Source: Candidatus Omnitrophota bacterium (GTDB lineage: Bacteria; Omnitrophota; Gorgyraeia; Zapsychrales; Fredricksoniimonadaceae). Taken from it: a stretch of 51,525 nt of DNA. Location of the stretch: assembly GCA_015228785.1 (NCBI GenBank), contig JADGCU010000006.1:1-51525 (forward strand), given 5' to 3'. The notes below the pieces were generated by a model. It worked only from the letters and a program-made list of their open reading frames with translations, did not search any database and had not been told where the DNA came from. The position numbers and the translations under genes are program-made. How positions within the stretch are numbered: position 1 is the first letter of the stretch; each line of letters starts with the position of its first letter. Below, piece after piece: positions 34,252 to 51,200 of the stretch.

Positions 34252-34870
34252 CTTTTTCCAAGATCTTCTCGATCTCCTCCTTGAAGCCCTTCCCCCCAAC
34301 GATCATCTTACCGTTCACAAAGAACGTAGGCGTTGAACTCACGCCCAAAGCATTCCCCTCCTTAATATCGTTCGTGATACGCGCCTCCATGGTCCCCCCA
34401 TTAACACAGGCCGAAAGCCTCACCCCATCAACTCCAAGCGAAACAGCCATCTCTGAAAAATATGTATCCACACTTACCATTTTCGACCAGCTTTTTTGAC
34501 TCTTGAAAAGAACATCATGGAACTGCCAAAACTTCCCCTGCTCCGCCGCGCATTCCGCATAAATAGCCGCACGACGGGCAAACGCATGCATAGGAAGAGG
34601 AAAATACTTAAGCTCAATATGAATCTTATCTGGATATTTTAGAAATTCTTCTTTAATATTCTTTGCAGCACGAGAGCATGCGGGACATTGAAAGTCTGTA
34701 TATTCCACGACCTGAATAGGCGCGCCTATTTTTCCCTTTTCACGGGGCCCCAACTGAGCCATAGGCGACTTTACAAAAGGCTTTTTAAAAAGAACTGCCT
34801 TCAATGTCAAGATCGCCCCCACACACATCAGAGCAATGAGTCCGGCAAGGACAGGTTTAGATATTTTCAC
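34241..34870 (-). CDS. DsbA-family thiol-disulfide oxidoreductase
   Basis: N-terminal anchor, EYTDFQCPAC, FPL, A.EQGKFW and GVSSTPTFFVNG. Confidence 0.9.
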   Translation of the reverse strand: MKISKPVLAGLIALMCVGAILTLKAVLFKKPFVKSPMAQLGPREKGKIGAPIQVVEYTDFQCPACSRAAKNIKEEFLKYPDKIHIELKYFPLPMHAFARRAAIYAECAAEQGKFWQFHDVLFKSQKSWSKMVSVDTYFSEMAVSLGVDGVRLSACVNGGTMEARITNDIKEGNALGVSSTPTFFVNGKMIVGGKGFKEEIEKILEKDAP

Positions 34871-34959: not shown

Positions 34960-37900
34960 TTACCCAGCCGTGTCGAGCGGCTCTCCTGATATAACCCCTA
35001 AAAACTGCGGAAGATCCTCAAGCGGCTGAATACTAAAAATGACAGGAACAAATCCAGATGCTTGTCTAAACCGCTCTAACTTCACGGGATCGATATTAAA
35101 CTGGATCGCGTTCCCCGTCCCTGTGGTCTTAACATCCATGCGCTGAGCCCTAAGATCAATACCACCTGTCTTATCCCCGGCCTTCATCGCCGACTCAGCA
35201 GCGATCTTGCTAAGCAAGATACGAGCATATTCAATAGCCTTGCCTTGATCAATAAAATTCGGACTCGTCACAATTGAAACAACTTTAGCCTTTCGAGCCA
35301 GAGACGCAAAATGATCGAGTGCCCTCTCGACCGCTTGCGAAGGAAGCCCGTTCAAAACGTCAATATCGATATCAACTATATCAAAACTTTTGCCGGACAC
35401 GTCCTGCGCAGAACCAGGTTCGATCTTGTAACGCAACTCTGTTCCAGGTGCCATGCCGACAGCCTGCATGGTATCCATGTTATAAAGCCAGCGCCAAACC
35501 GCAATAAGCCCCTTCTCTACAAACGGGGTAATAAACCCCTGAATACCCAGAATATTCAACCCGTAAGCATCTGCTTCTGATAACTTGTCCGATCCAGACC
35601 CGAGAAATTGAGGAGTAGAGCGGTAACGCTGCATAATCTCGGCGTCCGCATGCGCATCAATATGGAGCAGGCTATTACCCTTGCGAGAAATCCATCCTTT
35701 CTCAACAGCAAACCACCAGAAAGGAAACGCAAAATTATGATCATCTGCGATAAACACGCGTGGGCCATCAGGAATTTCGATGAGAACTTTCTTCTTTAAA
35801 CCTGTGATTTCTTTAAGGTCCTCACCTTTTAAAGACCGGTAAGAAACAATATTAGACTCGATAACCTGATCTGCCATTTCCGCCGACCATCCCCGCACAA
35901 CAGTCCAATCATCAACACCTGTCACATCGACCGCATCTCCGGCAAGGAGCTTCAGCCCAAAGGGAACGATCTCGGCAACCGCCTTTTCATTACGCTTCGT
36001 CACCTGATTCGACCCTGCTTGACCGTCTCTGTTTCTTGCCAAGAGCCGTTGAACAGCGCTCGCCGTTTCTTTATAGTTGATCACATTGGCCTTTACGAGA
36101 CCAGGAACACCTTTCACCTCCTCATCAGACCCTCCAGGTCCAAAACCATCGCCGAAATAAACAACTTTTGTACCAAACCTTGGAAAAATCTTCTTTCCCA
36201 TAGTCTCGCCTTTATTGATAGCCAAGAACCAGGAGTTGTAATGATAAAGCTCCCCATTTTTATCGCCATCAAACGGCTTAGTATCAATAAAAGGCCCCGA
36301 TGTATCAGGCAAAACAATGCCTCGCCTCTTGGTCTCGTGCCTCAAATACTCAAGGATCTCCGGGATCCTCTGCCCATGTAACAATCTAAACCTAACAGAA
36401 ATCACTCCGTCCGACGTTAATATCTGGGGCTCCATATTTTCCTCGGGAAACTTCTGTGCGATGGATAATAAGACACTCGAAAGCCTCTCCACCGTCGCAT
36501 CACCTGAAAAAGTAACTAAATCTGTCTTCAAATAACCCGTGCTGTCAACGTCATAGGAAGCTCCGCCACCCGCGACATATAGCACAATCTTCTTCCCGCC
36601 TGTCAATCGTGACCTGATCGGCATACCCTTAGCATCTTTGCTGTTTTCCAAATGCTCTCGCAATCTCTCAAAATTCCCATTGGTCAAGATCACGATCTTC
36701 TTTTTGGCATCAAGCGCAGCCAACAATGTTTCCACCATCTCTGAAGACAAGGGTGATTTGTCATCCGCGAGTGTGCCATCATAATCAAAAACCAGCACTT
36801 CCGCATCATCAAGATCTCCCATAGCGATCTTTTTAACAAGTTGTCCGTGATCAAACAGTTGATTCTCAACACTAGCCTTATCTGTCTTCATCGCCAACTC
36901 GCGGTCTGATCCCCACATCGGTGTTACAGCAACGTTCGCTTTCTTCTGAAAAAAGACCTTGCCGCTTTTAAAAGTAAGAATATCAGAAAGAAGAACTCCC
37001 TCTTTGCCAAGAACTTCCGCTATCCCTTGAGGATCATGATCAGGAAACACTCCCTGAAGATACAAAACACCTTCTGGACGCAATCGATCTACCATCGTTC
37101 GAATAAGCTCAGGAGAAAGATCCGGGCCAAAACGCATATAAATAAAATCCAAAGATCCCTCGGGAAGGAACTTTGCTGCATTCAACGCATCAGCACGGTA
37201 GAAATCAATATCAATAGGAAAACGTCCCTGAAGATATTTCATATCTTCAATGCCCTTTTTAAAACGATTGATCCACTTTGCAGCGATATCAACAACATGA
37301 AATCTAATCTCTGGCCCTTTCGCAGATCCTATTCCTCGGCCAAATGCTTTCATCATCACTAAGAATTCTTCCTTCCAAGGATCCCCAGGTGAAAAGAGGC
37401 CAATATCTCTCGGAGAAAAAGATGGCAACGCGCTATGAACAGCCTCGATCATTTCTTTAATATCCGGCTCAGCGGTATCAGGCGTTCCTGCCCACTGATT
37501 GAACTCGCCACTATCTTCACTATCATCAGCGTGCAAAGTATACTTTTCATTCCTCACCACCTCTACCCCTAATGACTTAAGCTCATAATCAAGATAATTG
37601 ATAACCACCTCTCCATTGGCCTTCAATAGAACAAACGACATCCCTTGAGAAGAAAAGACTTTCGTAGGTGCATGAATATAAATATTCTCATCTTTCATCC
37701 CACCCTGTCGTAAATACTCCACCAGATCATTCACATCACCATTCCCAGAACCTGGAACAATCACAATACGATGGTCATCATTCACGTGAGGAAGCATGTC
37801 CTTGGGCTCTCGAGTTGAAGAAAAATGCCCAAATCGAATTCCCACCCCATCTTTATCGTAAACAATAAAAGCTACACCCGTGCTATTTAAAGAAGCTGAA

Positions 37901-39384
37901 TATGTGTCCCCCAACGCATAACCTCCCTGAACAAACCACGCAAGCTTTCCTTCCTCAACCTCTTTCATGGCAGGGAGCCAAGGATGGGGGCTTTCTTGTC
38001 GCACATAAAAACGCTCTGCCTTCTCAGTCCTCCCCGATGAAGGAAGACTCGCCGTCTCCATAACCTCCGACAACTCATAATTTGCTGTCGAGGGCTCTGC
38101 GCTAGAGCGAACAGAAAAAAGAGTCCGCCCTTGAGGCAACATGGCTAGCTCCGATGTCGTTGCGCGCGCCCGGTCAAGCTTCATCCGACATCCCCCTGAG
38201 AAATATTTCCGCGGGATCATCTCCCCCGAAACCGAATCTTGCTCCTCCTTGATCATGTTAAAAGCACCTTTCTTGAAAGCCTCAACATAACGCTTCCAAA
38301 TATCCTCAGGAGAAAGATCGCTCAACGAGCCTTCGGCTCTTCCCAGGCCCACAATCTTCTTTCTGTCGACGTACACCTGAGACAAGGCGCTATCTTTAAT
38401 TTTCCTTTTAAACCAGTCCGCCAGGATCAACGAATGATAGATCTGCCGGAGCGGCGCAAAATTTCGGCCTTCATTGACTTCTCGCTCCAAGATAGGAACC
38501 ACAACTTCACGAAGAACCTGTTTGCCAAGATCTTGAGATGAAGAAGCTCTCGCCGCCTGACACTTGACACTTAAAGAAGGATCAATAACTCCAGAGGAAT
38601 TCAAGCACTCACCGGTCTCAACCCTCGAACGTCCCGCATCTTTCTCCTGGGCCAGATAATCACTCTCCAGCATCACTTTAAGCCGACTTTCAACAACATA
38701 AGCAACCGCCGTTCCATCATGTGCCGCATGTTCTGCGTCCTGTGCTTTTTCATAAACGACCGCCTTCTCCGGAACAATCCACACCTTATTAAACGTATCT
38801 ACCGGAATATCCGTCGTGCCATATTTCTCCCGAGACTTTTGGTACACCTCAGCCCAAAACTTCTTTCCCAGATCATCTTCAGGATAAATAGCTGATGCCG
38901 TAATCTGTTTCAAGAGATAATCCTGCGCTAAAAGTTCCCGCCCCATCTGAGTTTCACCAAACTCACTGGTAATAATCCGATCTTTCTCATACGGAGAAAG
39001 GTTGACCCAAAGATCATCCTCAGGGACAGTCAATGCGGCGAGAAAATATTTTATAAGACGAGTAGATTCCACCTTAAGGTCATCAGACGTAAAACGCAAC
39101 CCGGCTGCCCTCTGACGTCCAACACCTATCTTTTCGAAATCCCCTTTATCTAGAATAAAATCAAACTTAAATGGCTCCTGAGCATTGACCTTAATCCCTG
39201 CCAGAACAGGCGGTTGATAGGCATCTGAGAAGTGAACCATCGTTCCCGGCACAGACAGGCCATTGCCCATCGCTGCTCCCAAATCAGCAGCATGAACTGG
39301 CAGACTTGTAGCTGTAAAAATAACAGCCATAAATCCACACAACGTGCGCCTCAGCGCCAGCCATAAACAACCCATCTTTAACAT
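34960..39384 (-). CDS. Large exported modular protein: conserved-type N-domain, several enzyme-like cargo domains (SAM methyltransferase-like, HAD hydrolase, UPF0489/ureohydrolase-like) and a C-terminal GGID tail
   Basis: Signal peptide ending PVHA-A; GGGGAGG SD; ADA...LPEGSLDFIY...LRPEGVL (MTase-like); FDYDGTL...LTNG...K...YFGD......D (HAD); DDHN...HIDAHAD...DIDIDV; C-terminus DKTGGIDL...GFVPVIFSIQP...LP. Confidence 0.85.
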   Translation of the reverse strand: MLKMGCLWLALRRTLCGFMAVIFTATSLPVHAADLGAAMGNGLSVPGTMVHFSDAYQPPVLAGIKVNAQEPFKFDFILDKGDFEKIGVGRQRAAGLRFTSDDLKVESTRLIKYFLAALTVPEDDLWVNLSPYEKDRIITSEFGETQMGRELLAQDYLLKQITASAIYPEDDLGKKFWAEVYQKSREKYGTTDIPVDTFNKVWIVPEKAVVYEKAQDAEHAAHDGTAVAYVVESRLKVMLESDYLAQEKDAGRSRVETGECLNSSGVIDPSLSVKCQAARASSSQDLGKQVLREVVVPILEREVNEGRNFAPLRQIYHSLILADWFKRKIKDSALSQVYVDRKKIVGLGRAEGSLSDLSPEDIWKRYVEAFKKGAFNMIKEEQDSVSGEMIPRKYFSGGCRMKLDRARATTSELAMLPQGRTLFSVRSSAEPSTANYELSEVMETASLPSSGRTEKAERFYVRQESPHPWLPAMKEVEEGKLAWFVQGGYALGDTYSASLNSTGVAFIVYDKDGVGIRFGHFSSTREPKDMLPHVNDDHRIVIVPGSGNGDVNDLVEYLRQGGMKDENIYIHAPTKVFSSQGMSFVLLKANGEVVINYLDYELKSLGVEVVRNEKYTLHADDSEDSGEFNQWAGTPDTAEPDIKEMIEAVHSALPSFSPRDIGLFSPGDPWKEEFLVMMKAFGRGIGSAKGPEIRFHVVDIAAKWINRFKKGIEDMKYLQGRFPIDIDFYRADALNAAKFLPEGSLDFIYMRFGPDLSPELIRTMVDRLRPEGVLYLQGVFPDHDPQGIAEVLGKEGVLLSDILTFKSGKVFFQKKANVAVTPMWGSDRELAMKTDKASVENQLFDHGQLVKKIAMGDLDDAEVLVFDYDGTLADDKSPLSSEMVETLLAALDAKKKIVILTNGNFERLREHLENSKDAKGMPIRSRLTGGKKIVLYVAGGGASYDVDSTGYLKTDLVTFSGDATVERLSSVLLSIAQKFPEENMEPQILTSDGVISVRFRLLHGQRIPEILEYLRHETKRRGIVLPDTSGPFIDTKPFDGDKNGELYHYNSWFLAINKGETMGKKIFPRFGTKVVYFGDGFGPGGSDEEVKGVPGLVKANVINYKETASAVQRLLARNRDGQAGSNQVTKRNEKAVAEIVPFGLKLLAGDAVDVTGVDDWTVVRGWSAEMADQVIESNIVSYRSLKGEDLKEITGLKKKVLIEIPDGPRVFIADDHNFAFPFWWFAVEKGWISRKGNSLLHIDAHADAEIMQRYRSTPQFLGSGSDKLSEADAYGLNILGIQGFITPFVEKGLIAVWRWLYNMDTMQAVGMAPGTELRYKIEPGSAQDVSGKSFDIVDIDIDVLNGLPSQAVERALDHFASLARKAKVVSIVTSPNFIDQGKAIEYARILLSKIAAESAMKAGDKTGGIDLRAQRMDVKTTGTGNAIQFNIDPVKLERFRQASGFVPVIFSIQPLEDLPQFLGVISGEPLDTAG

Positions 39385-39553
39385 GAAACACGCCTCCCCA
39401 AGCTAATAGAAGTATTTAATATAAATATAAGTGATACAAGGGGATAAGATAAAAAGGAAGGAAAGGCTTTCTTAATAGATAATATTATACATTGAAATAT
39501 TAATATAAAATGTTGGAATATATACAGTTACGAACTTATCGGATGAAGATGCG

Positions 39554-39910
39554 CTAGATATGCTTTTGTATCTTTTCTAAAAGATCCTTATGCTCGAATG
39601 GCTTTACAATATATTCTTTCACACCTTCGAGCTTAAAGATATCCTCAAGCTGTTCCTTATAGGTAAGAACAATAATAGGAACCTGTGCCAGATCCTTGAG
39701 TTTCTTGACCTCGAGAACAAAGGCATAACCATTCACATTCGGCATCACAATATCAAGAAGCACAAGATCAGGTGACATTTTCTGCATCTTTTGAAGAGCT
39801 TCGGCCCCGTCATGAGCGATGACAATTTCATAACCCTGCTTTTGTAAAAAGACCCCCAGCAATCTGACAAAACCTTTATCATCATCAGCAATCAAAATCT
39901 TTTTGGGCAC
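39554..39910 (-). CDS. Single-domain response regulator (CheY-like)
   Basis: ILIADDD, LLDIVMP, LT and IVKPF. GTG start at 39910 with a GAGGA SD. Confidence 0.9.
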   Translation of the reverse strand: MPKKILIADDDKGFVRLLGVFLQKQGYEIVIAHDGAEALQKMQKMSPDLVLLDIVMPNVNGYAFVLEVKKLKDLAQVPIIVLTYKEQLEDIFKLEGVKEYIVKPFEHKDLLEKIQKHI

Positions 39911-39930
39911 AATAAATTCCTCTGAAATAC

Positions 39931-40287
39931 TCAAATATACTTTTGAATCATCTTAAGAAGGTCTTGGTTCACAAAAGGTTTCACTATGTATTCTTTAACC
40001 CCCTCGACCTTGAAAAGATCCCGCATCTCATCCTTACAAGTCAGAACGATCACGGGTGTTTGCGCGCTTTGCTCCAATTTCTTCATATCAAAAAGAAACG
40101 CATACCCATTGATCTTGGGCATCTCCACATCCAAAAGGATCAAATCCGGCAATTCAAACTCAAGTTTCATAAGGGCCTCTTCGCCATCATGAGCAACAAT
40201 AATCTTATAGCCATGCTCTACAAGAAAAGAGCTTAATATTTTTGTCAACGTCTTATCATCATCAGCAATCAAGATTTTCTTGGACAT
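39931..40287 (-). CDS. Single-domain response regulator (CheY-like)
   Basis: ILIADDD, LLDVEMP, LT and IVKPF. Confidence 0.9.
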   Translation of the reverse strand: MSKKILIADDDKTLTKILSSFLVEHGYKIIVAHDGEEALMKLEFELPDLILLDVEMPKINGYAFLFDMKKLEQSAQTPVIVLTCKDEMRDLFKVEGVKEYIVKPFVNQDLLKMIQKYI

Positions 40288-40288
40288 A

Positions 40289-40888
40289 TTAATACCTTTG
40301 CAATGGTTTCATCGTTAACTCTGCGACGATCTTCTTGTCCCCTTTGATAAAAAACTCGATCTCATCCTTGACGTCCTGATCAGAAGAAAAATTGACGCCA
40401 TTAATTGCGGTATTAATAAAACTTTCGAAATGCGACATCTCAAGAAAAATATATCCGTTTGCCGAGAGTTCCTTAACAAAATAGCCGGCAACAAGATTTG
40501 TGATCGTGCCGCACGCATCCATCACAACAAGTTCATCATCTTCATCAATACGACCATATTCCAAAAGCCACATCAGACGCGCAATATAGTCCACGGGAAT
40601 ATAGACAATAAGCGCCCCCAGGGCCTTCCCCTGCTCCATTAACTCCCGATCTAAATGAAATGTCACACTGGAAAAAACGGTTCTGCTGCCAAATTTCTCA
40701 AGCCCATCAACACGCATACGCCGGGCAAACTGAACAATACGCCGCTCCTTGATCGCTGGCTCCGAAGAAAGATAAATATCCCCCTTCACCCTGAGCATCT
40801 TGGAGACAGAAGTCGCCAAGATCATGGACATATCATACAGATTACGATTAGCGCCTGAAAAGGCGAGCACCTTGCTAGAACTGGACAT
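40289..40888 (-). CDS. CheX/CheC-like protein
   Basis: G....YIP...IA.L...L and DACGTITNLVAG resemble the CheX DAxGExxNxxxG motif. Embedded among CheY-like genes. Confidence 0.5.
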   Translation of the reverse strand: MSSSSKVLAFSGANRNLYDMSMILATSVSKMLRVKGDIYLSSEPAIKERRIVQFARRMRVDGLEKFGSRTVFSSVTFHLDRELMEQGKALGALIVYIPVDYIARLMWLLEYGRIDEDDELVVMDACGTITNLVAGYFVKELSANGYIFLEMSHFESFINTAINGVNFSSDQDVKDEIEFFIKGDKKIVAELTMKPLQRY

Positions 40889-41255
40889 AGGGCTTCATCA
40901 CGGCCATGATCTGATCAGGTTTATACGGCTTAATAATATATGCTTTTAAGTTCGGATTCGCCGCATAGGCGGCCTGCTTACTCTCCTCAGCGGCGGAGGC
41001 CGTGATCATGATCATAGGAATATGCGCAGTCTCCGGAACTTTAACCAAGGCTGCCATAAGTTCTACTCCCGACATATTGGGCATCTGATAATCAACAAAC
41101 ATCAGGCTGATCTGCCCCATATGCTCAGCGATAATCCGCATGGCTGCCTCACCATGCTCGGCCTGAAGGATCTCATTCTTAACGCCCAGATTAATCAGCG
41201 TCTTGGACAACAACTTTCTGTCAAGAAGCGAATCATCTACGATCAGAATTTTCAT
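40875..41255 (-). CDS. Single-domain response regulator (CheY-like)
   Basis: MKILIVDDS, FVDYQMPNMSG, ITA and IIKPY. ATG at 41255 with a GAGGAG SD. Confidence 0.9.
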   Translation of the reverse strand: MKILIVDDSLLDRKLLSKTLINLGVKNEILQAEHGEAAMRIIAEHMGQISLMFVDYQMPNMSGVELMAALVKVPETAHIPMIMITASAAEESKQAAYAANPNLKAYIIKPYKPDQIMAVMKPYVQF

Positions 41256-41345
41256 CAATGTTCTCCTCGAGATTAAAACGAGAATGCTCGTAAAACCCTT
41301 ATCCTCAGCTCCAGGAACCAACGTACAGCCCAGCACATGAAAACA

Positions 41346-41570
41346 TTACTTCTCGTTCTTCTCATTCTCCATGGCATCCCCGGCCAGCGCCCCGCCCGCC
41401 GCGCCTACCGCGCCACCGATGAGCGCCCCTTCTGCCCCATGACCACTCTGATACCCAATAATGCCCCCCAACAACGCACCCACTCCGCCACCTGCCGCAG
41501 CCCCTTTTTGCGTCCCTGTACATCCAATAAGAGCAAAAGACATAAGAACAAAAACCACCATCTTCTTCAT
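41346..41570 (-). CDS. Glycine-zipper lipoprotein
   Basis: Lipobox LIGC, GAAAGGGVGALLGGIIG...GALIGGAVGAAGGALAG and an AAGGAG SD. Confidence 0.88.
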   Translation of the reverse strand: MKKMVVFVLMSFALIGCTGTQKGAAAGGGVGALLGGIIGYQSGHGAEGALIGGAVGAAGGALAGDAMENEKNEK

Positions 41571-41657
41571 ACAGTCTCCTTTGTATTATTATGCCCAAAC
41601 CCCATTAGGCCCGAGTTGCTTTTCAATTAAAGAAAGAAAATTATAGGTGTTATGGGT

Positions 41658-41666
41658 ATTATAACA
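41658..41666 (-). promoter_or_regulatory. Possible extended -10 promoter upstream of the glycine-zipper/CheY operon
   Basis: Exact TGtTATAAT on the minus strand in an intergenic gap. Confidence 0.4.
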
Positions 41667-41708
41667 ATGCGAATCGCGGGGAAAAGGGTTTTCTTAAGGT
41701 TTTTGGTT

Positions 41709-43079
41709 CTAATGAGTGGAGCGCACGACGATAAAACGCGTCTCTCCAGCCTCAAGCGTGACCTCGCCGATATCCTCAATACCAAGGCTCATGCCCTGAC
41801 TGTCCAGGTTGTCAAATTGGATACGACATGTTCCTGGATCAACAAAAATCCTGGCCACCCTGATTTGTGCAGGCAGCGCCTGCCAACTTCTAAGATCGGC
41901 CTGTTCTGAAAAGACATTATAAAGATTGCTCATGAGCCCAAAGACTTCAGCAGCAAAAGCCCCGCTCTTTTTATCAATGACCTCTTTCTGTTTACGCTCA
42001 ATCAGATACTTCATGGCTGGCCGCAAAACCGCTTTGGCCAAAACCGTGGCCTTACGCGACTCCAGATCCTTCATCGCAAGTTCCTCAATATTCATCCCCA
42101 ATTCCGTATCCGCAGAAACACGCGCTCCCCCCGCCTTATAAGCAATAACGCGTGCTGAATGAATATCATAATAACGCCGCATATATTTCGGAAAAGCAAG
42201 CTTGATAATAAATTGCCGATCAACCGGAATCGGAACAACATCGGCGACCTTAAGCGGCGAGTACCCGGCGAGCTGAAGAACAATGATCTTAGCCTTGTTT
42301 TCGTATCCTTGACTCGCGAAAGAACCTCGGGTCTCTTGCCGTAGAGCGGCCAAATCGTCATCAGAGAACTCCTCGGCAAGTCTTCCAGCCTCTTCTTTCA
42401 AGATCTGCGGCACATATTGCCCCTCGTAATAGGATGCGTAAAGACTTAACGCCTCCTTGTACCACAACAAGGCCTCTGCCTTATCTTCCGGCCTCCCCAT
42501 CGACTGATACAAGAGCCCCATAAACATCCGGGCAAACCCGTTGTCTTCATAACGCCGGCGTTTCATCTTATGGGCAAGATCCGTCACAACCTGATATTTA
42601 GAATTCAGATCCCGCGCCTCAACGAGTGATTCATTAGGATTCTTCAAAGACAGGAAATTCAATGCCTGGAAGATATTGACCAGGACATACTCATGATCAG
42701 CCCCACGATAAGGAAGCATATAATCATTAACAGCCCAGCTCAAAAACTCTTTACTCAGGGATTCGGTATAGAGCTCCTGAAAACGCTGCTTGGCCTTCTC
42801 AAGACTCCGAACACTTTCTTCGTAACGCCCAGCGTAGAATTCCACAAGCCCCCGGTCCAAATAATACAAAAGATAATTACCAGGACCGTAACTGGCCTCT
42901 TCCCGCTCAATCATATCAGCCGCAAGCTGTAATCGATTAGCCACAACAAGACTATTAACCTCAGGCTGCAAACGGGGACTTCCCGTCGTCATTACAGCAC
43001 ACGAAGAACAGACAAAAAGTACAGGGATAAAAAAAAGAAGGGAACGCCGTTGGGCGTTCCCTAAGATATCTCGCATCAT
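41709..43079 (-). CDS. COG3014-like TPR-containing lipoprotein (usual neighbour of lpoB)
   Basis: Lipobox-like SSC, LLYYLDRGL, PYRG..HE, ALN, VEAR and QADLRSWQALP. Confidence 0.75.
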   Translation of the reverse strand: MMRDILGNAQRRSLLFFIPVLFVCSSCAVMTTGSPRLQPEVNSLVVANRLQLAADMIEREEASYGPGNYLLYYLDRGLVEFYAGRYEESVRSLEKAKQRFQELYTESLSKEFLSWAVNDYMLPYRGADHEYVLVNIFQALNFLSLKNPNESLVEARDLNSKYQVVTDLAHKMKRRRYEDNGFARMFMGLLYQSMGRPEDKAEALLWYKEALSLYASYYEGQYVPQILKEEAGRLAEEFSDDDLAALRQETRGSFASQGYENKAKIIVLQLAGYSPLKVADVVPIPVDRQFIIKLAFPKYMRRYYDIHSARVIAYKAGGARVSADTELGMNIEELAMKDLESRKATVLAKAVLRPAMKYLIERKQKEVIDKKSGAFAAEVFGLMSNLYNVFSEQADLRSWQALPAQIRVARIFVDPGTCRIQFDNLDSQGMSLGIEDIGEVTLEAGETRFIVVRSTH

Positions 43080-43087
43080 GGCGCGTC

Positions 43088-43684
43088 TCACATCGAATAT
43101 TTCGGATTCTTTACAAGCTTCTTGATCTTCTTCTGGCCAAGCCATACCTTTTCATTCGTCGACAAATTCACCAGCTCCAAATTCACCTGGAACAAAATCG
43201 CATACTGTCCCTTGGTCTCATCCTTCACAGAATTAACCGTTCCCTGCAACATGAAATCAGCACCTGATTCATTGATAAGTTTAGCACGCGTCACCTCGCT
43301 CGAATTAACCTGCTGATCCATCCGCTCTTCACGAATTTCGGTGCGCGCAGACTTATCCGCCACGAACTTGACCTTGCCAGAATTCACAAGTGCCTGCTCT
43401 AAATCCTGAACAAACACATTGGAATCAATGTGCTCATGGCTTCGATTAACAACAGAACCTATGATCACAACAGGATCACGACCATTGTCCTTGTTAAACG
43501 TTCCAATCCACCCTCCCGCCGTACACTCCTTGATCATCTCCTCAGCGGCCATCCGGGCATCCGTATCGTTCCAACGACCAGAAAGGTCTACAACCTCAGC
43601 AGGTTCCTTACGGATCACCTGTGTCGCACACCCCGCAAGTCCCATCACAACAAAAATGCTCAAAAATAAAATGTACATCTTCAT
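43088..43684 (-). CDS. Penicillin-binding protein activator LpoB-like lipoprotein
   Basis: Lipobox LAGC, DLSGRWNDTD, N.S.EHID, SGKVKFV, GADFML.G and VW.....IKK. Confidence 0.8.
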   Translation of the reverse strand: MKMYILFLSIFVVMGLAGCATQVIRKEPAEVVDLSGRWNDTDARMAAEEMIKECTAGGWIGTFNKDNGRDPVVIIGSVVNRSHEHIDSNVFVQDLEQALVNSGKVKFVADKSARTEIREERMDQQVNSSEVTRAKLINESGADFMLQGTVNSVKDETKGQYAILFQVNLELVNLSTNEKVWLGQKKIKKLVKNPKYSM

Positions 43685-43702
43685 AAAATATTCACCCTTT
43701 TA

Positions 43703-44176
43703 TTATTCCGTGACAATAATGCCGCTCTTCAGGTCCGCGTTGATCTCCTCTAAAACCTTCTGAGCGTCCGCCTCATTAGAAAAAGGACCAACCCGTACGC
43801 GATAAAAAACCCCGCGTGCGCCTAAATCGCTGATCATAATATAACAATTATCATGCCCCTTTTCCTTGAGCTTTAAAATAGCAGCGTCCGCCCGAGCCTT
43901 CTCTTTAAAAGAATACACCTGAATAGCTAAAGATTCTTTAGAAACAACCTCCTTGGGAGCCACAACAACAGACTCCTGCGCCCGCATTCTCGGAGCCGGA
44001 ACCACAGCCTCTGCAGTCGTTTGAGGCGACTTAACATTATTCACCACAACATTCTGCTCAACAGGAACACGTGTCTCTTGCGGCTTTTCTTTCTTAAAAG
44101 CCAGCACAACAAAACCAACCGCAAGAATGACCAAAACCCAAATGATCCAAGATTGATTCCCCTTATCAGGCGCCAT
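43703..44176 (-). CDS. SPOR-domain membrane-anchored protein
   Basis: N-terminal TM, IQVYSF...A and FYRVRVGPF...A. GGGAGG SD before the ATG at 44176. Confidence 0.85.
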   Translation of the reverse strand: MAPDKGNQSWIIWVLVILAVGFVVLAFKKEKPQETRVPVEQNVVVNNVKSPQTTAEAVVPAPRMRAQESVVVAPKEVVSKESLAIQVYSFKEKARADAAILKLKEKGHDNCYIMISDLGARGVFYRVRVGPFSNEADAQKVLEEINADLKSGIIVTE

Positions 44177-44345
44177 GAAAATCCTCCCGCTTTTAATTAT
44201 CTTGTTGAACAAGGAACGCCGACAGTTATCCAAACGTTGACGACCTTATTATTTCCTAATGATGAACGGCGGTATTTTATCTCTTTTAATTTTGATTAAC
44301 AACAAAAATCATTTAAGACCCCAAAACAAAGTCTTCTCACCACAC

Positions 44346-45149
44346 CTATCCATGCTCTCCGACGACTTTTGGGGCCTCATATTTAGGAAGACGGCCTTTA
44401 AGGGCTCCCTCCACCAGCGCTTTAATGTCCTCACTGAAATCCTTGCCCAGCATCCACTCCAGATACCCAGGGTCTTTACGTGCGATCTCTCGCAGGCTTT
44501 CCTTCTTTGCATATTTGCCAAACATCATGTAAAGCTCGCCGTTCCACCAACGAAACTTGCGATCCGAATCGTAAAATTCCTGTCGCTCAACATAATTAAA
44601 CCGCCCCAAGACATCAATCGTATCTTCCCCAGCGCCATATTTCTGAATCTGACCCTCCATCACCTCAAGAGTCGCCTCCGTATCTGCCAAAGCCGCATGC
44701 GCCCCCTCAAGCTTCTTTCCACCACAATAAAACGCATAAGCAGCTGTGAGGTCCCTCTTTTCATTCAAATGAAAAACCTTCTGAGCATCATAGATCGAAC
44801 GCGCATTCATCGACAAAGACAACCCCGCATCACGAATTTCGCGTTCCAGAAGCGGGACATCAAATTTATCAACATTAAACCCGCCGATATCAGCATCTCG
44901 CAAAAAATCAACGATCTCCTTGGCAACCTCCTTAAAAGCAGGCGCATCCTTAACCGCTTCGTTAGAGATGCCCGTGAGCTCCACAACCACGGGCGGAATG
45001 GTCATCCCAGGGTTGATCCGCTTGGCATACACTTCGCGACCACCCGTCGGAAGAAGCTTGATCATCGCGATCTCAATGACCTTGTCCTTCTCAATCCACG
45101 TGCCGGTCGTCTCAAGGTCCAGAATGACCAGAGGCTTAGTCAATTTCAT
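44346..45149 (-). CDS. DEDDh 3'-5' exonuclease (DNA polymerase III epsilon-like)
   Basis: LDLETTG, GFN...FD.PLL, AH.ALAD..AT and a C-terminal FGKY...DPGYLEW extension. Confidence 0.9.
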   Translation of the reverse strand: MKLTKPLVILDLETTGTWIEKDKVIEIAMIKLLPTGGREVYAKRINPGMTIPPVVVELTGISNEAVKDAPAFKEVAKEIVDFLRDADIGGFNVDKFDVPLLEREIRDAGLSLSMNARSIYDAQKVFHLNEKRDLTAAYAFYCGGKKLEGAHAALADTEATLEVMEGQIQKYGAGEDTIDVLGRFNYVERQEFYDSDRKFRWWNGELYMMFGKYAKKESLREIARKDPGYLEWMLGKDFSEDIKALVEGALKGRLPKYEAPKVVGEHG

Positions 45150-45162
45150 GAATAACCTTTCT

Positions 45163-45822
45163 TTACTCTATTTCTGCTTCTAATTCCCTAAAGAGTTCCT
45201 CTGCCTTCTTGACCAGATCCGCCTTAATGAGCTTCAGCGACTCAGCATCCTTCTTAAAAGAACGAATGGCATTCAAAAGCTTGCGGACCGCGGCCGTATT
45301 ACGACGTTCGCGCTCCTCATCGGGATCGACCTTCTTGCGCTCCTTCATAAGGACCACAAGATCCTGACGCACAAGCCCCGCAGATCGCCCCTTATCAAAG
45401 ACCTGCCGGCGAAGTTCAGAATAATCTTGACGCGTGATCTCCTTCTTTCCCTTGGCAAGCCGAAGAACATGGATCGCATCCATTTCCGGTAACGCTGATG
45501 CGTCGCGTTCATCCACAAAACTATCTTGCAAATACTGCGGCTCCTGCTGCTCGACAAAACAATAGGTCTTAACAAGCTTGAGGGCCATGGATTTTTTAAA
45601 TCCCAACTCCCGTTCTGCATAATGATCAAACTTCTCATAACCCCAATACTCGTAAAGCTTGTCCCGATGAATAGCAAAAAGAGACTGAGCGAATGAAAGC
45701 CATGCTGTCTTAAAATCCTTCGCCCCCTCCTGAGCACGCTCACGCAATTCTTTACTCGTCGGATTATCAAGCTTCTTAAGCTTGCTGATCTTTTCTTCCT
45801 GATCGATCACGGACATAACCAC
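45163..45822 (-). CDS. Conserved hypothetical protein (DUF3102-like, helical)
   Basis: FK..W......L..I...KLY..WGY..F..Y...ELG.....A.KL pattern and a charged coiled-coil C-terminus. Confidence 0.55.
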   Translation of the reverse strand: MVMSVIDQEEKISKLKKLDNPTSKELRERAQEGAKDFKTAWLSFAQSLFAIHRDKLYEYWGYEKFDHYAERELGFKKSMALKLVKTYCFVEQQEPQYLQDSFVDERDASALPEMDAIHVLRLAKGKKEITRQDYSELRRQVFDKGRSAGLVRQDLVVLMKERKKVDPDEERERRNTAAVRKLLNAIRSFKKDAESLKLIKADLVKKAEELFRELEAEIE

Positions 45823-45906
45823 TCCTTCTAAAATATCTCTACGAAAAATTTAAGACATCCCCGCGCCACGACGGCCCATCAAGACAACGGGTGAACGGAA
45901 TTCTTC

Positions 45907-46809
45907 TTAAAACTGTTTGACCCGAACTCTTCCTGCCATGCGTTGAACGCCCTTCTTGCTAATCGCGCCGGGCTTGATGGAACGGGCCGCCTCAGCGCCA
46001 CATGCGGCAGCCAGACGGATCTGATCCTCAAGCCGGTCTTGTGCCATCATCCCAGCGACACACCCAGCCAATGCCGCATCGCCACAACCAACAGTATGCC
46101 CCTTGACCTTCGGCCCTCGGGCCCATAAGAACTCTTCCCCTTGGGTGATCACAAGGCCCGCTTCTCCCAATGTCAAAAGGACCATCTTCATACCACGCTT
46201 AAGAAAAGACCGCAATCCCTTTTTTACAAGCCGCTGAGAAGAAAGACGGCATTTCAAAAACGCCTCGGCTTCTTCTTGATTAGGCTTGATCAAAAAAGGC
46301 TTCGCCTTTATACCCTCCCCAAGGGCGTCTGCACTCGTATCCAGAAATGTCTGTGCCCCGGCACGCTTGGCTACGCCAATCAAGCTCCGATAAAAAGATG
46401 AAGGAACCCCTACCGGAAGACTCCCGGAGAAAATAACGATACGAGCCCCTAAAATTTGACTGGCGAAGAATTTCTTAAACCGCATCACATCTTCCCGTGC
46501 CCATACCGGACCAGACTCAAAAATACGCGTAACCATGCCGTTCCTATGAATCGTCGTCGTATTAGTCCGCGTCTTGCCTCGAAGAATAAAAAGAACAGGT
46601 GGTAGCCCTTCGTCCCTAAGCTGCCCAGAAAGCCTGCGACCGCTCGTACCCGCAATGGCGATCAAAGGCATACTGACAAGGCCCAGGGCTTTAAGTGCTC
46701 GCGACACATTGACGCCCTTCCCCCCGGGAAAAATCGTCGTTTTCCCAGAACGAACGATCCTATCAAGAGCTGGATTAAGAGTAACGGTAAGAATCCGATT
46801 CGTCTTCAT
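45907..46809 (-). CDS. 1-phosphofructokinase-family hexose kinase (PfkB)
   Basis: TVTLNPALD, GGKGVNVS, TRTN, SGSLP, IKPNQEE, TLG..G and TVGCGDA. Confidence 0.9.
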   Translation of the reverse strand: MKTNRILTVTLNPALDRIVRSGKTTIFPGGKGVNVSRALKALGLVSMPLIAIAGTSGRRLSGQLRDEGLPPVLFILRGKTRTNTTTIHRNGMVTRIFESGPVWAREDVMRFKKFFASQILGARIVIFSGSLPVGVPSSFYRSLIGVAKRAGAQTFLDTSADALGEGIKAKPFLIKPNQEEAEAFLKCRLSSQRLVKKGLRSFLKRGMKMVLLTLGEAGLVITQGEEFLWARGPKVKGHTVGCGDAALAGCVAGMMAQDRLEDQIRLAAACGAEAARSIKPGAISKKGVQRMAGRVRVKQF

Positions 46810-46830
46810 AGTCAACAATAGTCGGCCCAT

Positions 46831-46861
46831 AAAAAAATAGCCACGGGGTCACCGTGGCTAT
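46831..46861 (-). terminator. Rho-independent terminator
   Basis: Perfect 10-bp stem ATAGCCACGG/CCGTGGCTAT with a 5-nt loop, followed by a T-run on the minus strand. Confidence 0.85.
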
Positions 46862-46883
46862 CTTTGGTCATCCTGATTATTTC

Positions 46884-47372
46884 CTACTCAACCGGAATGT
46901 ACGACTTCATCGCACCCCAGGTCTTCTGGCCCACGACGCCATCTGACTTCAGGTTATGCTGTTTCTGAAATTCAATAACCGCGGCACGCGTCTTGCTGCC
47001 GATCTTCCCATCAATCTTTCCGTCATACAAACCAGCACCCTTAAGCGCCTTCTGTAAATCAACAGCCGTAACACCTGTTGCCTTAATGATAGGAGAAGCC
47101 TGTGTATTAACAGCCGAAGAACCTGTCTTAAAAGACCCGGAACCTTCATCCGACTCCTCCATGTCGACAGTCTTGCCACTCTCAATCTTTCCAGCAATCT
47201 CTTTAACCTCATATTTCAGATCAACAACTTCCTTCTCCTGTTGTTCCATACGCTGCTGCAAATCAGCGACATGATTTTGCAACTGATTAACCGGCGAAGG
47301 GGCTTGGGGCGTCGTCGCACATCCAGAAATGGCGAACGATACAAAAGCAATCATTAAAAAACGAGCAATCAC
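46884..47372 (-). CDS. Lipoprotein with coiled coil and peptidoglycan-binding (PG_binding_1) domain
   Basis: Lipobox ISGC, LQ.AL...G.Y.G.IDG.IG..T..AV..FQ....L..DGVVG..TW and an AAAGGAGG SD. Confidence 0.88.
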   Translation of the reverse strand: MIARFLMIAFVSFAISGCATTPQAPSPVNQLQNHVADLQQRMEQQEKEVVDLKYEVKEIAGKIESGKTVDMEESDEGSGSFKTGSSAVNTQASPIIKATGVTAVDLQKALKGAGLYDGKIDGKIGSKTRAAVIEFQKQHNLKSDGVVGQKTWGAMKSYIPVE

Positions 47373-47411
47373 GATGTCCTCCTTTAATTAAGTTTGATCC
47401 TGAATCTTATA

Positions 47412-48095
47412 TTACTGCGCTTCATGAACACTATCAACACTCTTTACTTCTAAAAGTCCCTTAACAACCAACGCAGGATGCGAAGGCAAAAGCGATTCGA
47501 AATCTTTTTTGGCTATCTCAAAATCATCATGAAGAGCCAACTCATATTCGAACCCGGGCTGCACAACCGGAAGCCCTCCAAACTTGACCCTCTCTTTGGT
47601 CCCGTTCACATCAAGCGTACCTAAATAATTCACCCGATCGAAAGCCATCTCAAAATCCAAAGCGACTGATTCCTCAGCAATCGTTGACCCAACGGGAATC
47701 GCAATGGCCGTGATCTCATACGAACCAACCGGGAGTTCCCAGTAAAAATATCCCGGTTCAATCACTCGTCCTTCTGCCCAAGGGACAACGCTCTGATTCG
47801 CCTTATCACCAATAATAAAGAAATACTTCTTCGCTGGATCATTCCGAGAGATAACCGTAAGACGTACATAAGCGGTCTTAAGAAGCCCCGCAAAGACCGT
47901 CTTTCCAAACCCAATCCCAACAGGAACAGAATCAATATCAAGCAACGTTTCGCTTGTCATCGAAACCTGTGCCACCTCAGGAGCACTCGCCGAGGGTGAA
48001 CGCACCTCATTCCCCTCAGGCTTCACACTACTCGAAAGAGCGGTACAGCCTGCCAGACAAATCAATAAAAGAAAGGCTGTCAGATTCCTAAACAT
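47412..48095 (-). CDS. Hypothetical lipoprotein
   Basis: Lipobox LAGC and a beta-rich body (ELPVGSYEI, VNYLGTL). Confidence 0.7.
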   Translation of the reverse strand: MFRNLTAFLLLICLAGCTALSSSVKPEGNEVRSPSASAPEVAQVSMTSETLLDIDSVPVGIGFGKTVFAGLLKTAYVRLTVISRNDPAKKYFFIIGDKANQSVVPWAEGRVIEPGYFYWELPVGSYEITAIAIPVGSTIAEESVALDFEMAFDRVNYLGTLDVNGTKERVKFGGLPVVQPGFEYELALHDDFEIAKKDFESLLPSHPALVVKGLLEVKSVDSVHEAQ

Positions 48096-48212
48096 GCTAA
48101 AAGGATCATTTATGAGATTTTAAAAACAGTGTCAGTTTAGCAAAAAGGATAGAGAACAGGTAGGAATAATTTGGAAAATAAACGGAGCAATAAAAATCCA
48201 GAAAACTATTTA

Positions 48213-51200
48213 TTACGCGCTCCCAGTCCCCATCTTGGCCTCAAGCTCAGAAAACAACGGCAAGGTAGAAGCCGGCTCAATCTTAAAGATCACAGGAACA
48301 AGACCATCGATCTTAATATTATCCAGATCCTGCTGACCAACCGGAAGAACCATGCCCTTCCCATCACGCCTGATCTGCATGTCCAAACTAGCAGCGCTAA
48401 AATCAATACCACCGGTCTTATCCATGGCTTTTTCAGACTCAATTGCCGACACCGTCATGGCCTTTTCAGAAATAAAAGGCGGTCGCACCGGCTTCACATC
48501 ACCAAATCTTTCACGCAAAGCATTAACCGCCCTGTCCTTTTGATAGATTGCGACCCATCGTTCATTTTCTGTAACCGCAGTATCTCTAAATTTCTGAAAG
48601 GTCCAAATAATCCAAGGAGCCGTTTCCTTTGTCGAGACTTCGATCAACAGTTCTCCCGACCACTTACGGGATTCAATATTGGCCCCGTGGTTCAAAAGAT
48701 TCTTACATAACGCAGGAACAGCACGTTCCTTGATAACTTCTTTAATTTCTCGATACGGGGCGCTACTGCCCCCGCTTCCCGCATTCTGGAAGGCCGAAGT
48801 ACTGATCAACTCATTTACCTTTTCCTCATCCGCCGCTACGCCCGTCATCGCCGGCTTTGGTGCCTCCTGAGCCTGCGGCCCCGCTATTGTCGTCACTCGG
48901 CTCGCTTTAATTTCCTCCACGGTCTCCCTAAACTTAGCAAGTTCTTGCCAACGGGTCATGCCCCCCAAACGAAAAGGATCCTTAAAATTCTGAACATACC
49001 AGGCCCATGCCGTCGACGCTGTGCTTTCAACAGGCCTCCCATTCCATCCAAAAGGGATATGAACTGACTTGTTTACATAAAGATATCCCTTCTTGTCGCC
49101 ATCAATACGACTTAAAGATTCCAGGCCCTTCGTCATGGATACCGCATCAGCCAGCGCCTCTTCTGCCCATGAAGGATGTGAATCTTTATAATGAAGTGAA
49201 AGCTCCAAACAAGCTGCGATGGCCCCGGCCGTCCACTCACCGCTAAAAACATCATGACTATCGGTATACCCTACCCCGAACAGTTTCCCATCCTCAGAAT
49301 ATCCAGAACGCGCTTTTGTGGTCTTCCACATACGATAAGAAGCTCCCTCCCCATACATCTCATCTAACTTCTTGGGAGAAAAAGAAACAATGCCCCATGT
49401 CTGGACATCAACCGCAAAATCACGATTTGGCCTGAATTCTTTCCCATCATACAAGCCCCCCTGATAGAGGATGCCCGCCTCTTTATCCAATCCATACTTT
49501 TTAATGTACTCTTCAATGCCATCCATCATTTTCTTATAACTAGAGTCTCCCGTAACTTCATACAACATTCTAAGGCCGGCGTAAGCGGAAAAATTATTCT
49601 CATTAGAAATATCATTTGGATTCTTCTCAAATGTCCCCTCCGGCGCATGATGGATAGCGCCTATATCATCAGTCAAAGCTTTGAACGCAGGAATAAGACT
49701 TTCGGCTAATTGAACCTCTTCACTATTACGAAGGATATTACCCCCATACTTCGCATGTGCGGTCTGAAGCGCTGCCATAATAATCCAGGCATTTTCACCC
49801 ATGATCGGTTTCCAGTCTTTCCATTCACTCTCTTCACCTGTTAAAGGATCAGCATCTTTCCATTTATCAGATACTGTGCGAAAAAATAATGCTTCACGGG
49901 GACCTAATACCTTCTTATCCTTTCCATATCTGAAATACTGCGAACCCGAAGCCCTGATGCTCCGCATCTCCCCCCATGAATCCGAGCGAAGTGTTCTAAT
50001 AAAAGTATTCGCCAAATTAAGATCTTTACGCTGAGGATCAAGAACTGAGGCGATCACACCGGCAGAACCATCATAAAAATTGAGGCTGCGATTAATCATC
50101 CGACGCTCTATCCCGTCTGGAATGGATTTCCACAAATCCAGTCTTTCTTTCAAATCTTTTGGGACCTTAAAACTACGGAGCATATTGTCTTCAAAAACAT
50201 TCCCCTTCAACCACATCATGGGATTCGCAGGTGCTTCGGCCGCTTGTAAAAAAGATGGCAGACTAAGAACCGCTAAAGCAGCGGCAGCCACTATTCCCCA
50301 ATATTTCTTGCGAACCGAGTTCAACGCCGAAGAACCTTCACTCTTCATCGCGGCCTCAGAAGTCTGCTTTAAAATCCAAGCACCTACCTCACGTACAACA
50401 TCATCAGACTCTCTCATGTAAGGCGCCACGGTGGCCATGCTCCCATGGGCACTCGCGTCATTCGTGCCATAACTGAACCGGATCATATTTAAAGGAGTAG
50501 GCGAAGAAGAAGACGGCGCCTGAAGATCCAGACCTTTCTCCTGCGTCGCCTTAGTTTTTAGCCCTTCTGACGGAAGAGGGACACTCCGCTCGATTGAGAA
50601 TGACTTTTGGGGCGGCGCCTCCCGGAATTGACCCTCTTTCGTCACCCGAACCTCGCCTGAAGATGTCCCCGAAAACACTTTGACCCAATCATCATCCTTG
50701 AGATCTGGATTCTCTTTCTTAAAATCATCCAGGACCTTCTTCATCTCCGCCCGTTGATCTTCCGGCGCAGCCGGTATGACAAGATCCCGGATCTGGGCCA
50801 ATGTATTTCCCCCGCCAACTGAAGTATACGTTGCGTTCGCATAGACCTCGCGCCCTTTCCACTCCTGACTCTTATCAGACCGCTCCTCATAAAACGGAAC
50901 CGGCTTAAGCGTATAAACCTTATGTCCCGGGACCATTTCCATGGAAAACTGGTCATCTGCGATCTTCCAGGTCGCCGGCGTTTCTGTCTCTGAAAGGAAC
51001 ACATGCGTTGCTGCAGGATTTTCTTTGACAACCTTCTCAAATTCAGACTTTAAAAGCTCTTTATCAACAGGGATTGATGTCTCATCGATCTGTTTTCGAA
51101 TGTCCGCGACCGTCGCATAACTTTGGCGCATGCTCATCATGGACGTCATCATCGGTGTCCCCTGCGGCACCTCTGAATGGATCGCCGGGGTTTCCGGAGA

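Follow-up and report, generated by a model that had tools for sequence, protein, structure and literature searches.

Do the short peptides ending in Ala-Met that recur between the domains of two large proteins of a Candidatus Omnitrophota bacterium mark places where a precursor is cut, or do they have another origin? The window analyzed here is an entire 51.5-kb contig (JADGCU010000006.1, 51,525 nucleotides) of a 2.02-Mb genome, which comprises 123 contigs and is 82% complete. It encodes both proteins, referred to below as P1 and P2. A preliminary description of this DNA had proposed that Ala-Met (AM) is either the site at which a protease releases each cargo with an N-terminal Met or a micro-homology joint at which cargo cassettes are gained and lost. 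We find that the recurring unit is a four-residue motif, E-x-A-M, that its excess is confined to one family of proteins in this genome, and that its spelling changes between related genomes. The best reading of these data is a putative protease site at which a polyprotein would be cut, a reading to which we give an even chance of being right.

A four-residue motif in two large proteins

P1 consists, in order, of a Sec signal, a head, a cargo region and a C-terminal tail that starts with GGID. Its cargo comprises an unknown module, a methyltransferase-like region, a HAD-like module and a UPF0489 module; in Pfam and NCBIfam scans UPF0489 covers amino acids (aa) 1210-1306, and the HAD match at aa 863-923 is weak. 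P2, whose 5′ end is cut off by the end of the contig, has an unknown N-terminal part, an internal signal-like segment, a glycosidase-like (alpha/alpha-toroid-like) cargo, a helical region and a GGID tail. The features are as follows.

34960..39384, reverse strand: P1, 1474 aa (open reading frame list and translation)
38152..39384, reverse strand: P1 signal peptide and conserved head, aa 1-411 (jackhmmer; alignment of 29 heads)
38140..38151, reverse strand: P1 motif 1, E-L-A-M, aa 412-415, at the head/cargo junction
36889..36900, reverse strand: P1 motif 2, E-L-A-M, aa 829-832, within RELAMK, 31 aa before the HAD-like module
35185..35196, reverse strand: P1 motif 3, E-S-A-M, aa 1397-1400, at the cargo/tail junction, 6 residues before GGID
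34963..35166, reverse strand: P1 GGID tail (jackhmmer)
48213..51524, reverse strand: P2, at least 1103 aa (open reading frame list and translation)
50346..50357, reverse strand: P2 motif, E-A-A-M, aa 390-393
50229..50348, reverse strand: P2 internal signal-peptide-like segment from Met393, with a basic n-region, a hydrophobic core and LQA-AEA
48456..48467, reverse strand: P2 motif, E-K-A-M, aa 1020-1023, first of a doublet
48423..48434, reverse strand: P2 motif, E-K-A-M, aa 1031-1034, 3 residues before GGID
48216..48413, reverse strand: P2 GGID tail (jackhmmer)

Four further AM dipeptides lack Glu at position -2 and were not counted as motifs.

39268..39273, reverse strand: P1 GAAM, AM from aa 38
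37966..37971, reverse strand: P1 LPAM, AM at aa 472-473
36820..36825, reverse strand: P1 KIAM, AM from aa 854
48846..48851, reverse strand: P2 KPAM, AM from aa 892

Each of the ten AM dipeptides lies where the preliminary description had placed it, and AM does recur at domain boundaries; the true unit, however, is E-x-A-M (written E.AM below), which only six of the ten fit. GAAM, LPAM, KIAM and KPAM look like chance occurrences. KPAM, listed in the preliminary description as lying after the glycosidase-like domain, is not conserved in the homologues of P2. Three of the sites are indeed encoded by one and the same sequence, GCGATGAAG, and the SEKAM pair is a direct repeat, TCTGAAAA[G/A]GCCATG, with 14 of 15 bases identical. 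Close doublets of this kind are common, 22 of 179 motif spacings being 20 aa or less. Motif 3 of P1 closes the last helix of the UPF0489 module in a predicted model of the tail region. Taken alone, neither protein has a significant excess of AM (six observed against 2.9 expected in P1, four against 3.1 in P2).

The cargo of P2 has homologues of 40-63% identity in other Omnitrophota proteins, one of them source-labelled Candidatus Omnitrophica. The cargo of P1, and its order, had no match in any other protein, and 28 of 31 related genomes matched its head only. Junctions could thus be compared across orthologues for P2 and not for P1.

Enrichment throughout a family of head- and tail-bearing proteins

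The GGID tail, about 65 residues long, was found by iterative search of six-frame open reading frames (ORFs) in 23 ORFs of this genome, always at the C-terminus. It starts with GG(I/V)(D/N) and lies at the very end of the protein, as in both P1 and P2. A conserved head of about 330-390 residues, which ends in KYFSGG in relatives, stands behind a Sec-type leader in 22 ORFs, P1 included (the 5′ end of P2 is missing). The 27 head- or tail-bearing ORFs of at least 500 aa account for 7.0% of the bases of the genome (47,471 aa). A profile of the tail, which starts at GGID and hence lacks the AM motif, matched 6157 representative proteins at E ≤ 0.001; a word-index search with the tail found only two, and a profile search was needed. 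The same profile gives 62 matches in the related genome G003, one of several relatives with many copies. In a tree of 71 heads, for which other genomes were sampled partially, the nearest neighbor belongs to another genome for 13 of this genome's 20 heads, and the largest clade exclusive to this genome has three members. Judged from this tree, the paralogues are old.

The AM excess is a property of this family. The 23 tail-bearing ORFs (34,850 aa) hold 145 AM dipeptides where 75.8 are expected, against 1114 observed and 1124 expected in all other ORFs of at least 200 aa (583,026 aa). It stems from a single context, Glu at -2, which is present at 77 of 142 family AM sites. E.AM itself occurs 79 times in the tail-bearing ORFs (5.3 expected) and 104 times in the 27 head- or tail-bearing ORFs (6.9 expected, a 15-fold enrichment), with at least one copy in 25 of the 27, and 54 times in the remaining ORFs of at least 200 aa (59.7 expected). 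When all three-residue patterns of five shapes were scanned without bias, E.AM came out on top (p = 1.7e-55; runner-up 3e-9). The control patterns E.AL, E.AI, E.GM, E.SM, D.AM and Q.AM were at or near expectation in the family ORFs of this genome, and E.AV was mildly raised (29 observed, 15.8 expected). Furthermore, 43 long representatives from outside this genome contain 132 copies of [DE].AM against 11 expected, 91 of them outside the tail zone (9.9 expected there).

Several features of the family may be recorded here. Its leaders are of Sec type and mostly end in Y-A-Q; the leader ends (for example window 39290-39384) are very regular, with (S/G)-Y-A-Q followed by S or T, where Ala precedes and Gln follows the likely signal-peptidase cut, and Y-A-Q resembles the x-A-(M/Q/E) core of the junction motif. 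An invariant G-G at the end of the head (KYFSGG; window ~38200, P1 aa 394-398) and at the start of the tail (35166) brackets the cargo; double-glycine sites are the cut sites of C39 peptidases. In family proteins of this genome (G000), on several contigs, the cargo domains include radical SAM with B12-binding, PP2C, CofD, GH77 with glycogen-debranching, starch synthase, HATPase, receiver and cNMP-binding domains. These are normally cytoplasmic enzymes, yet they stand behind a Sec leader. At G000:C98:2173-12200 and C30:3485-6297 a tail-only ORF directly follows a long tail-less, E.AM-rich family ORF; in each case the two appear to be one gene that a frameshift or an assembly error has broken up. 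A 10,599-codon ORF without head or tail (G000:C73:27206-59002) has three E.AM where 1.6 are expected, and a four-residue scan found no punctuation of its own. A further pattern, RSE.R, is absent both from this ORF and from the family ORFs of the genome, and no relative sampled has more than one copy.

Position of the motif

E.AM occurs within about 50 residues of the head end in 17 of 22 head-bearing ORFs and never inside the head body; similarly, 28 of 42 heads from other genomes and databases have [DE].AM between -30 and +70 of the head end. At the other end of the protein, E.AM lies at most 25 residues before the GG of the tail in 11 of 22 ORFs by count (12 of 23 by eye). The distance of the motif from GGID ranges from 1 to 21 residues.

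Between these two ends the motif is rare inside Pfam domains. Residues covered by Pfam domains contain no motif in this genome (2,958 residues) or in G003 (1,378) and one in the database representatives (2,315), in the pooled count one in 6,493 residues where 13-16 are expected (P ~3e-5). The distance from motif to domain edge is often 3-31 residues, and one receiver domain has motifs on both sides, at 17 and 20 residues. Cargo homology blocks behave in the same way: 20% of their ends lie within 5 aa of a motif, compared with 2.8% for random placement, and only 4 of 76 motifs fall inside a block, compared with 36% at random, in a test limited to 35 blocks by the great diversity of the cargo. 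In the 12-residue flanks on either side, linker-type residues are commoner than at random positions (0.656 versus 0.591, p ~3e-9), and this holds both for this genome and for the outside set. Together, these comparisons show that the motif sits in flexible linkers between head, cargo units and tail, and modules appear to be exchanged at these junctions.

Spelling of the motif in related genomes

Family ORFs were taken from ten related genomes, with the very large ORFs of relatives, such as a 39,654-codon ORF of G003, kept outside the motif counts. The clearest spellings, as observed/expected, are as follows.

G003, same taxonomic family, 45,637 aa: D.AM 69/3.7, N.AM 20/3.2, E.AM 3/4.6
G011, same taxonomic family, 13,177 aa: D.AM 27/1.5
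G001, same genus, 6,085 aa: no AM excess; D.AE 13/2.6, DAAE 7/0.17
G030, same order: N.AV 14/2.3, mostly T-N-A-A-V-L, with Val codons GTT 8, GTC 4, GTA 1 and GTG 1
G019: D-H-x-M-A 5/0.01, in the form DH.MAE

The variant spellings occupy the same places as E.AM here, after KYFSGG and before GGID, and among 136 outside tails with enough upstream sequence D.AM precedes 45 and E.AM three. In general form the motif is an acidic or amide residue, any residue, Ala, and then Met, Glu, Gln or Val, and E-x-A-M is the version of this genome. Within the predicted proteins compared, the spelling was shown to be uniform inside a genome and different between related genomes; it follows the genome and not the paralogue. 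About 100 sites on anciently diverged paralogues sharing one spelling per genome are what would be expected of a single trans-acting, co-evolving reader, to which this pattern points. The earlier idea that each cargo would begin with an N-terminal Met fits here but is a local matter, since sister lineages have Glu, Gln or Val at that place.

One tail subtype (for example G000:C98:11457-11651 and C4:4117-4311) has a D-P-A-M of its own at a strand-to-helix turn, even here, in a genome whose linkers carry Glu. This copy seems structural and distinct from the junction motif, and it raises raw D.AM counts in tail-rich sets.

Export signals behind the motif

Some motifs are followed by a segment that resembles an export signal. 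The P2 segment that starts at Met393 carries R-K-K rather than R-R and therefore looks Sec-like rather than twin-arginine (Tat). At the aligned junction, three homologues of P2 have D-x-A-M (DEAM, DRAM, DAAM) with a twin-arginine signal no more than a few residues behind it; in a fourth the signal stands behind D-F-A-A, and in a fifth N-A-A-M lies about 20 residues upstream. The twin-arginine signal, an S/T-R-R-x-F-L-K-like n-region with a mildly hydrophobic core, is found in the aligned homologues P0155, P0156, P0157 and P0158, and in P0156 three modules in a row each begin with D-x-A-M and an R-R signal. Moreover, three further ORFs of this genome have a Sec-like hydrophobic segment that starts at the motif Met.

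A simple pattern applied to 136 family proteins (222,923 aa) gave 20 internal twin-arginine-like segments, several of them doubtful. For 10 of the 20, [DEN].AM lies at most 24 residues upstream, which is the case for 4% of random positions (p = 1.5e-9). These segments lie hundreds of residues inside the ORF and would be N-terminal only after a cut. Conservation of the internal Tat signal across diverged homologues suggests that it is functional, and TatC is encoded in 30 of 31 genomes, with two copies in this one. A Tat signal deep within a chain that has a Sec leader could function only if it became N-terminal, from which we infer that such chains would have to be cut; this is the strongest argument for cutting.

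As a separate observation, tatC lies directly downstream of the GGID tail of a family gene, on the same strand, in two genomes (tatC at G003:C2:349224-349832 and G001:C155:7568-8179; adjoining tails at G003:C2:348727-348906 and G001:C155:8562-8723), and in this genome one of the two tatC copies (C17:12837-13460) and a family ORF are some 4 kb apart. This adjacency may reflect a conserved locus rather than a functional link.

A putative cleavage site and the evidence against it

If E-x-A-M is a protease site, one trans-acting endopeptidase would recognize it and cut the precursor into a head, separate cargo enzymes and a tail. Alanine would probably occupy the position called P1 in protease nomenclature (not to be confused with protein P1), so that the chain would be cut directly ahead of the fourth residue or directly behind it. 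Cargo units with a Tat or Sec signal directly after the motif would thereby expose that signal at a new N-terminus and could be exported on their own. The junction position, the linker-like flanks, the genome-wide code and the export signals favor such a site, as does selection at the level of the peptide (below), and of the two halves of the original proposal this is the one that the evidence favors, although no protease was found.

That last result is one of several that weigh against cutting. The neighboring genes of P1 and P2 include no peptidase, and a Pfam scan of the cargo of 21 family ORFs, P1 included, found no peptidase domain. Among the few peptidase families tried elsewhere in the genomes, C39 and S26 do not track the head- and tail-bearing family. 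C39, the peptidase proposed for giant proteins in the literature, is encoded in 25 of 31 genomes within ORFs of 137-85,816 codons, mostly above 1,000; it also occurs in the three genomes in which no head was matched, and the search found none in this 82%-complete genome. Most genomes have a single copy of the S26 signal peptidase, and those that carry the family have no additional paralogue. Nor does the head look like a protease: its AlphaFold model (predicted local distance difference test, pLDDT, 67.7) had no Foldseek match in the PDB at E ≤ 0.001, and the best VIA-align Z was 3.8. Other difficulties concern the motif itself. By a strict hydrophobicity test an export signal follows it in 5 of 217 cases, a minority. 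In G016 the D.AM excess is weak (6 observed, 1.55 expected), and the samples from G008, G025 and G029 (4,658-7,960 aa range) gave no clear motif pattern; either the family works without a motif there or the code has drifted out of sight. As the preliminary description had stated, not every boundary has a motif, and some multi-domain cargo stretches of about 2,000 residues have none, so the motif would delimit units rather than domains. E-S-A-M of P1 was modeled, at low confidence, at a helix end and not in a long disordered loop. Finally, it is a puzzle where a Sec-exported head and a cytoplasmic cut would meet.

Two other possibilities for the reader were considered. Only four head columns differ consistently between the E.AM genome and the D.AM genomes, and none stands out as a charge partner. 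Ribosomal skipping of the 2A type was set aside, since a signal read by the ribosome should not change its spelling between close relatives.

Alternative explanations

Could the motif persist without selection on the peptide? Chance or amino-acid composition might be suspected from the insignificant AM excess of P1 and P2 alone, but has practically no standing against a 15-fold family enrichment that tops an unbiased scan (p = 1.7e-55) while the rest of the genome is not enriched. DNA micro-homology joints, left behind as cargo cassettes were gained and lost, would suit the homology blocks between paralogues that end at the motif, the highly shuffled cargo, of which the P1 order is matched nowhere else, and the 14/15-nucleotide repeat of the SEKAM doublet. 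The codons nevertheless make such joints highly improbable. Only about 8 nucleotides are fixed, with wobble and x positions free: Glu is encoded by GAA 42 times and by GAG 36 times, and the x codon varies without constraint. Ala is encoded by GCG or GCC at 72 of 79 sites, a preference that is mostly ordinary codon-pair bias, since 75% of Ala codons before Met are of this kind throughout the genome. Neutral decay of a joint would moreover leave one-mutation variants, and none of the neighbor classes is in excess (135 observed and 110.5 expected for position 4, 15 and 35.9 for position 3, 39 and 40.6 for position 1). Free Glu codons, a free x and the lack of excess neighbors together argue that the three residues are held by selection on the protein and not on the DNA; the comparison of synonymous sites, which had been put forward as a way to tell a DNA joint from a protein motif, thus comes out for the motif, and micro-homology is not supported as the cause of its conservation. 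The motif Met could also be a start codon, either for internal translation or as a relic of fused-in genes with signal peptides of their own. A complete signal peptide directly after several motifs, as at a true N-terminus, would fit this, as would the Lys, Ala and Thr that are common after the Met and the GAR at -9 to -7, where true starts are rich in purines. We nonetheless consider it very improbable, because the homologous junctions in G001 (DAAE) and G030 (TNAAVL) contain no start codon at all. In true gene starts of this genome the stretch from -12 to -7 is A/G-rich and 45% have T at -1; the motif, by contrast, shows G-C-(G/C) at -3 to -1 without favoring GAG, and no support for a Shine-Dalgarno sequence or an internal start was found at motif sites; a fusion relic, for its part, would keep neither Glu nor Ala and would not lack one-mutation neighbors.

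The remaining alternatives accept that the peptide is selected. According to the main rival, the motif is a docking site that is bound and left uncut. Its reader would be a chaperone, an adaptor for secretion or the head or tail of the family itself, and the binding might, for instance, help a long chain of many modules to stay competent for export. All evidence for a trans-acting reader (linker position, sharp selection, a genome-wide code) applies to docking equally; the close doublets would lend avidity, and the failure to find a protease would be expected. What docking leaves unexplained are the Tat and Sec signals directly after the motif and the retention of a Tat signal inside a chain with a Sec leader, and it also counts against docking that the head columns differing with the code are only four, none an obvious charge partner. 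On balance we regard docking as unlikely, yet as deserving serious attention. A structural linker element without any reader, such as a helix cap or a hinge at the start or end of modules, would be in keeping with the D-P-A-M turn of the tail, with the P1 E-S-A-M that closes a helix in the model and with the over-representation of Pro at x and at position -4. A cap would hardly be E.AM at 104 sites here and D.AM, DAAE or TNAAVL in relatives whose paralogues are interleaved with these, and its distance to GGID would not be expected to vary from 1 to 21 residues. A spelling set per genome on interleaved paralogues is hard to reconcile with a purely structural role, which we accordingly rate as quite improbable. 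We return to the polyprotein reading below.

Comparison with known systems

The linker sites of MARTX toxins are leucine-specific. The Omnitrophota family resembles these toxins in being built as a large secreted protein with conserved N- and C-terminal regions around swappable central modules, and in MARTX toxins of Vibrio, according to the available portions of the sources, modules are released by cuts in inter-module linkers (PMC4453568, PMC5218395, PMC11296635). MARTX toxins, however, carry a cysteine protease domain of their own and RTX-type repeats, whereas the present family has an unrelated head and tail, a Sec-type leader, cargo of cytoplasmic type and a four-residue code that varies with the lineage. 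Neither Peptidase_C80 nor RTX-type repeats had a Pfam match in P1 and P2 (E ≤ 0.1) or in 20 further family ORFs (E ≤ 1e-4).

Viral polyproteins of the picorna-, poty- and coronavirus type have short junction sites with variable flanks, whose spelling co-evolves with one protease, and some of their products start with internal signal sequences. The short, sharply defined site at module junctions is the point of likeness. The differences are that the family is encoded in a cellular genome, by about 27 such genes, with no protease in the chain, and that cutting is putative here.

Gingipain precursors are cut between domains. Cargo proteins of type IX secretion systems (T9SS) share with the family a Sec leader, variable cargo and a conserved C-terminal domain, which is removed in T9SS. 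Cleavage by PorU is described, in the part of the source available, as sequence-independent (PMC4804311), in contrast to the strict motif that precedes the tail in the Omnitrophota family. Scans of P1 and P2 against Pfam and NCBIfam gave no match to Por_Secre_tail or TIGR04183, and the tail model (pLDDT 68.9; predicted template-modeling score 0.29) is mostly coil and not a confident beta-sandwich.

Closest in phylogeny are the giant proteins of Omnitrophota. The accessible portion of a 2023 preprint (West-Roberts et al., 10.1101/2023.11.21.568195) suspects them of autoproteolysis and states that missing information on cleavage points blocked the authors' approach, and a 2026 preprint (10.64898/2026.06.07.730766), as far as its available text goes, describes multi-enzyme Omnitrophota giants whose cargo is similar in kind. 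Methyltransferase, HATPase, HAD, radical SAM, receiver and starch synthase cargo, the phylum itself and a suspicion of post-translational cleavage are thus common to both. The giants differ in being proteins of at least 10,000 aa; within the parts of these sources at hand, their cleavage points are not given and the head/tail family and its motif are not described. The words 'cleavage', 'linker' and 'motif' do not occur in the available text of the 2026 preprint, and literature searches for the GGIDL tail, Omnitrophota polyproteins and internal signal peptides in bacterial polyproteins, supplements aside, returned nothing relevant.

Neighboring genes

The neighbors of P1 and P2 encode DsbA-like and MauE/DoxX proteins, a Memo-AMMECR1 fusion, RodA, two PilB-like ATPases, receiver domains, LpoB and SPOR proteins, and others. 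Directly downstream of P1 (window 33796-34870) lie the DsbA-like thioredoxin-fold protein and the MauE/DoxX membrane protein, a possible disulfide-handling pair. At window 28617-30799, a 149-aa ORF that consists of nothing but an MshEN domain precedes a full PilB/T2SSE-type ATPase, which itself has an MshEN domain. Elsewhere, the single S26 gene lies about 1.5-2.5 kb from a family gene in three genomes (S26 at G000:C7:3250-3771, G011:C3:59652-60245 and G005:C99:27921-28439); this proximity could be due to chance, family genes being many, or to shared synteny.

Significance

On the polyprotein reading we tentatively propose, with somewhat less than an even chance of being right, that Omnitrophota possess a cellular polyprotein system, in which the head-cargo-tail precursors of dozens of genes per genome would be cut at a four- to six-residue code rewritten in each lineage together with its protease (E.AM, D.AM, DAAE, DH.MAE, TNAAVL), and in which modules would be sorted singly, some by Tat or Sec signals of their own. 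The giant and multi-enzyme proteins of Omnitrophota are a recognized puzzle, and whether and where they are cut is unknown according to the available part of the 2023 preprint (10.1101/2023.11.21.568195). For the present family the junction code gives exact candidate cut points, such as residues 412-415, 829-832 and 1397-1400 of P1, and provides a rule by which its proteins can be split into units for structure prediction and annotation. The switch of code from genome to genome is in addition a handle for finding the reader through co-variation. If the proteins are indeed cut, the family, which fills about 7% of this genome and counts at least 6157 representative clusters in public data, would form a bacterial counterpart to the viral polyproteins.

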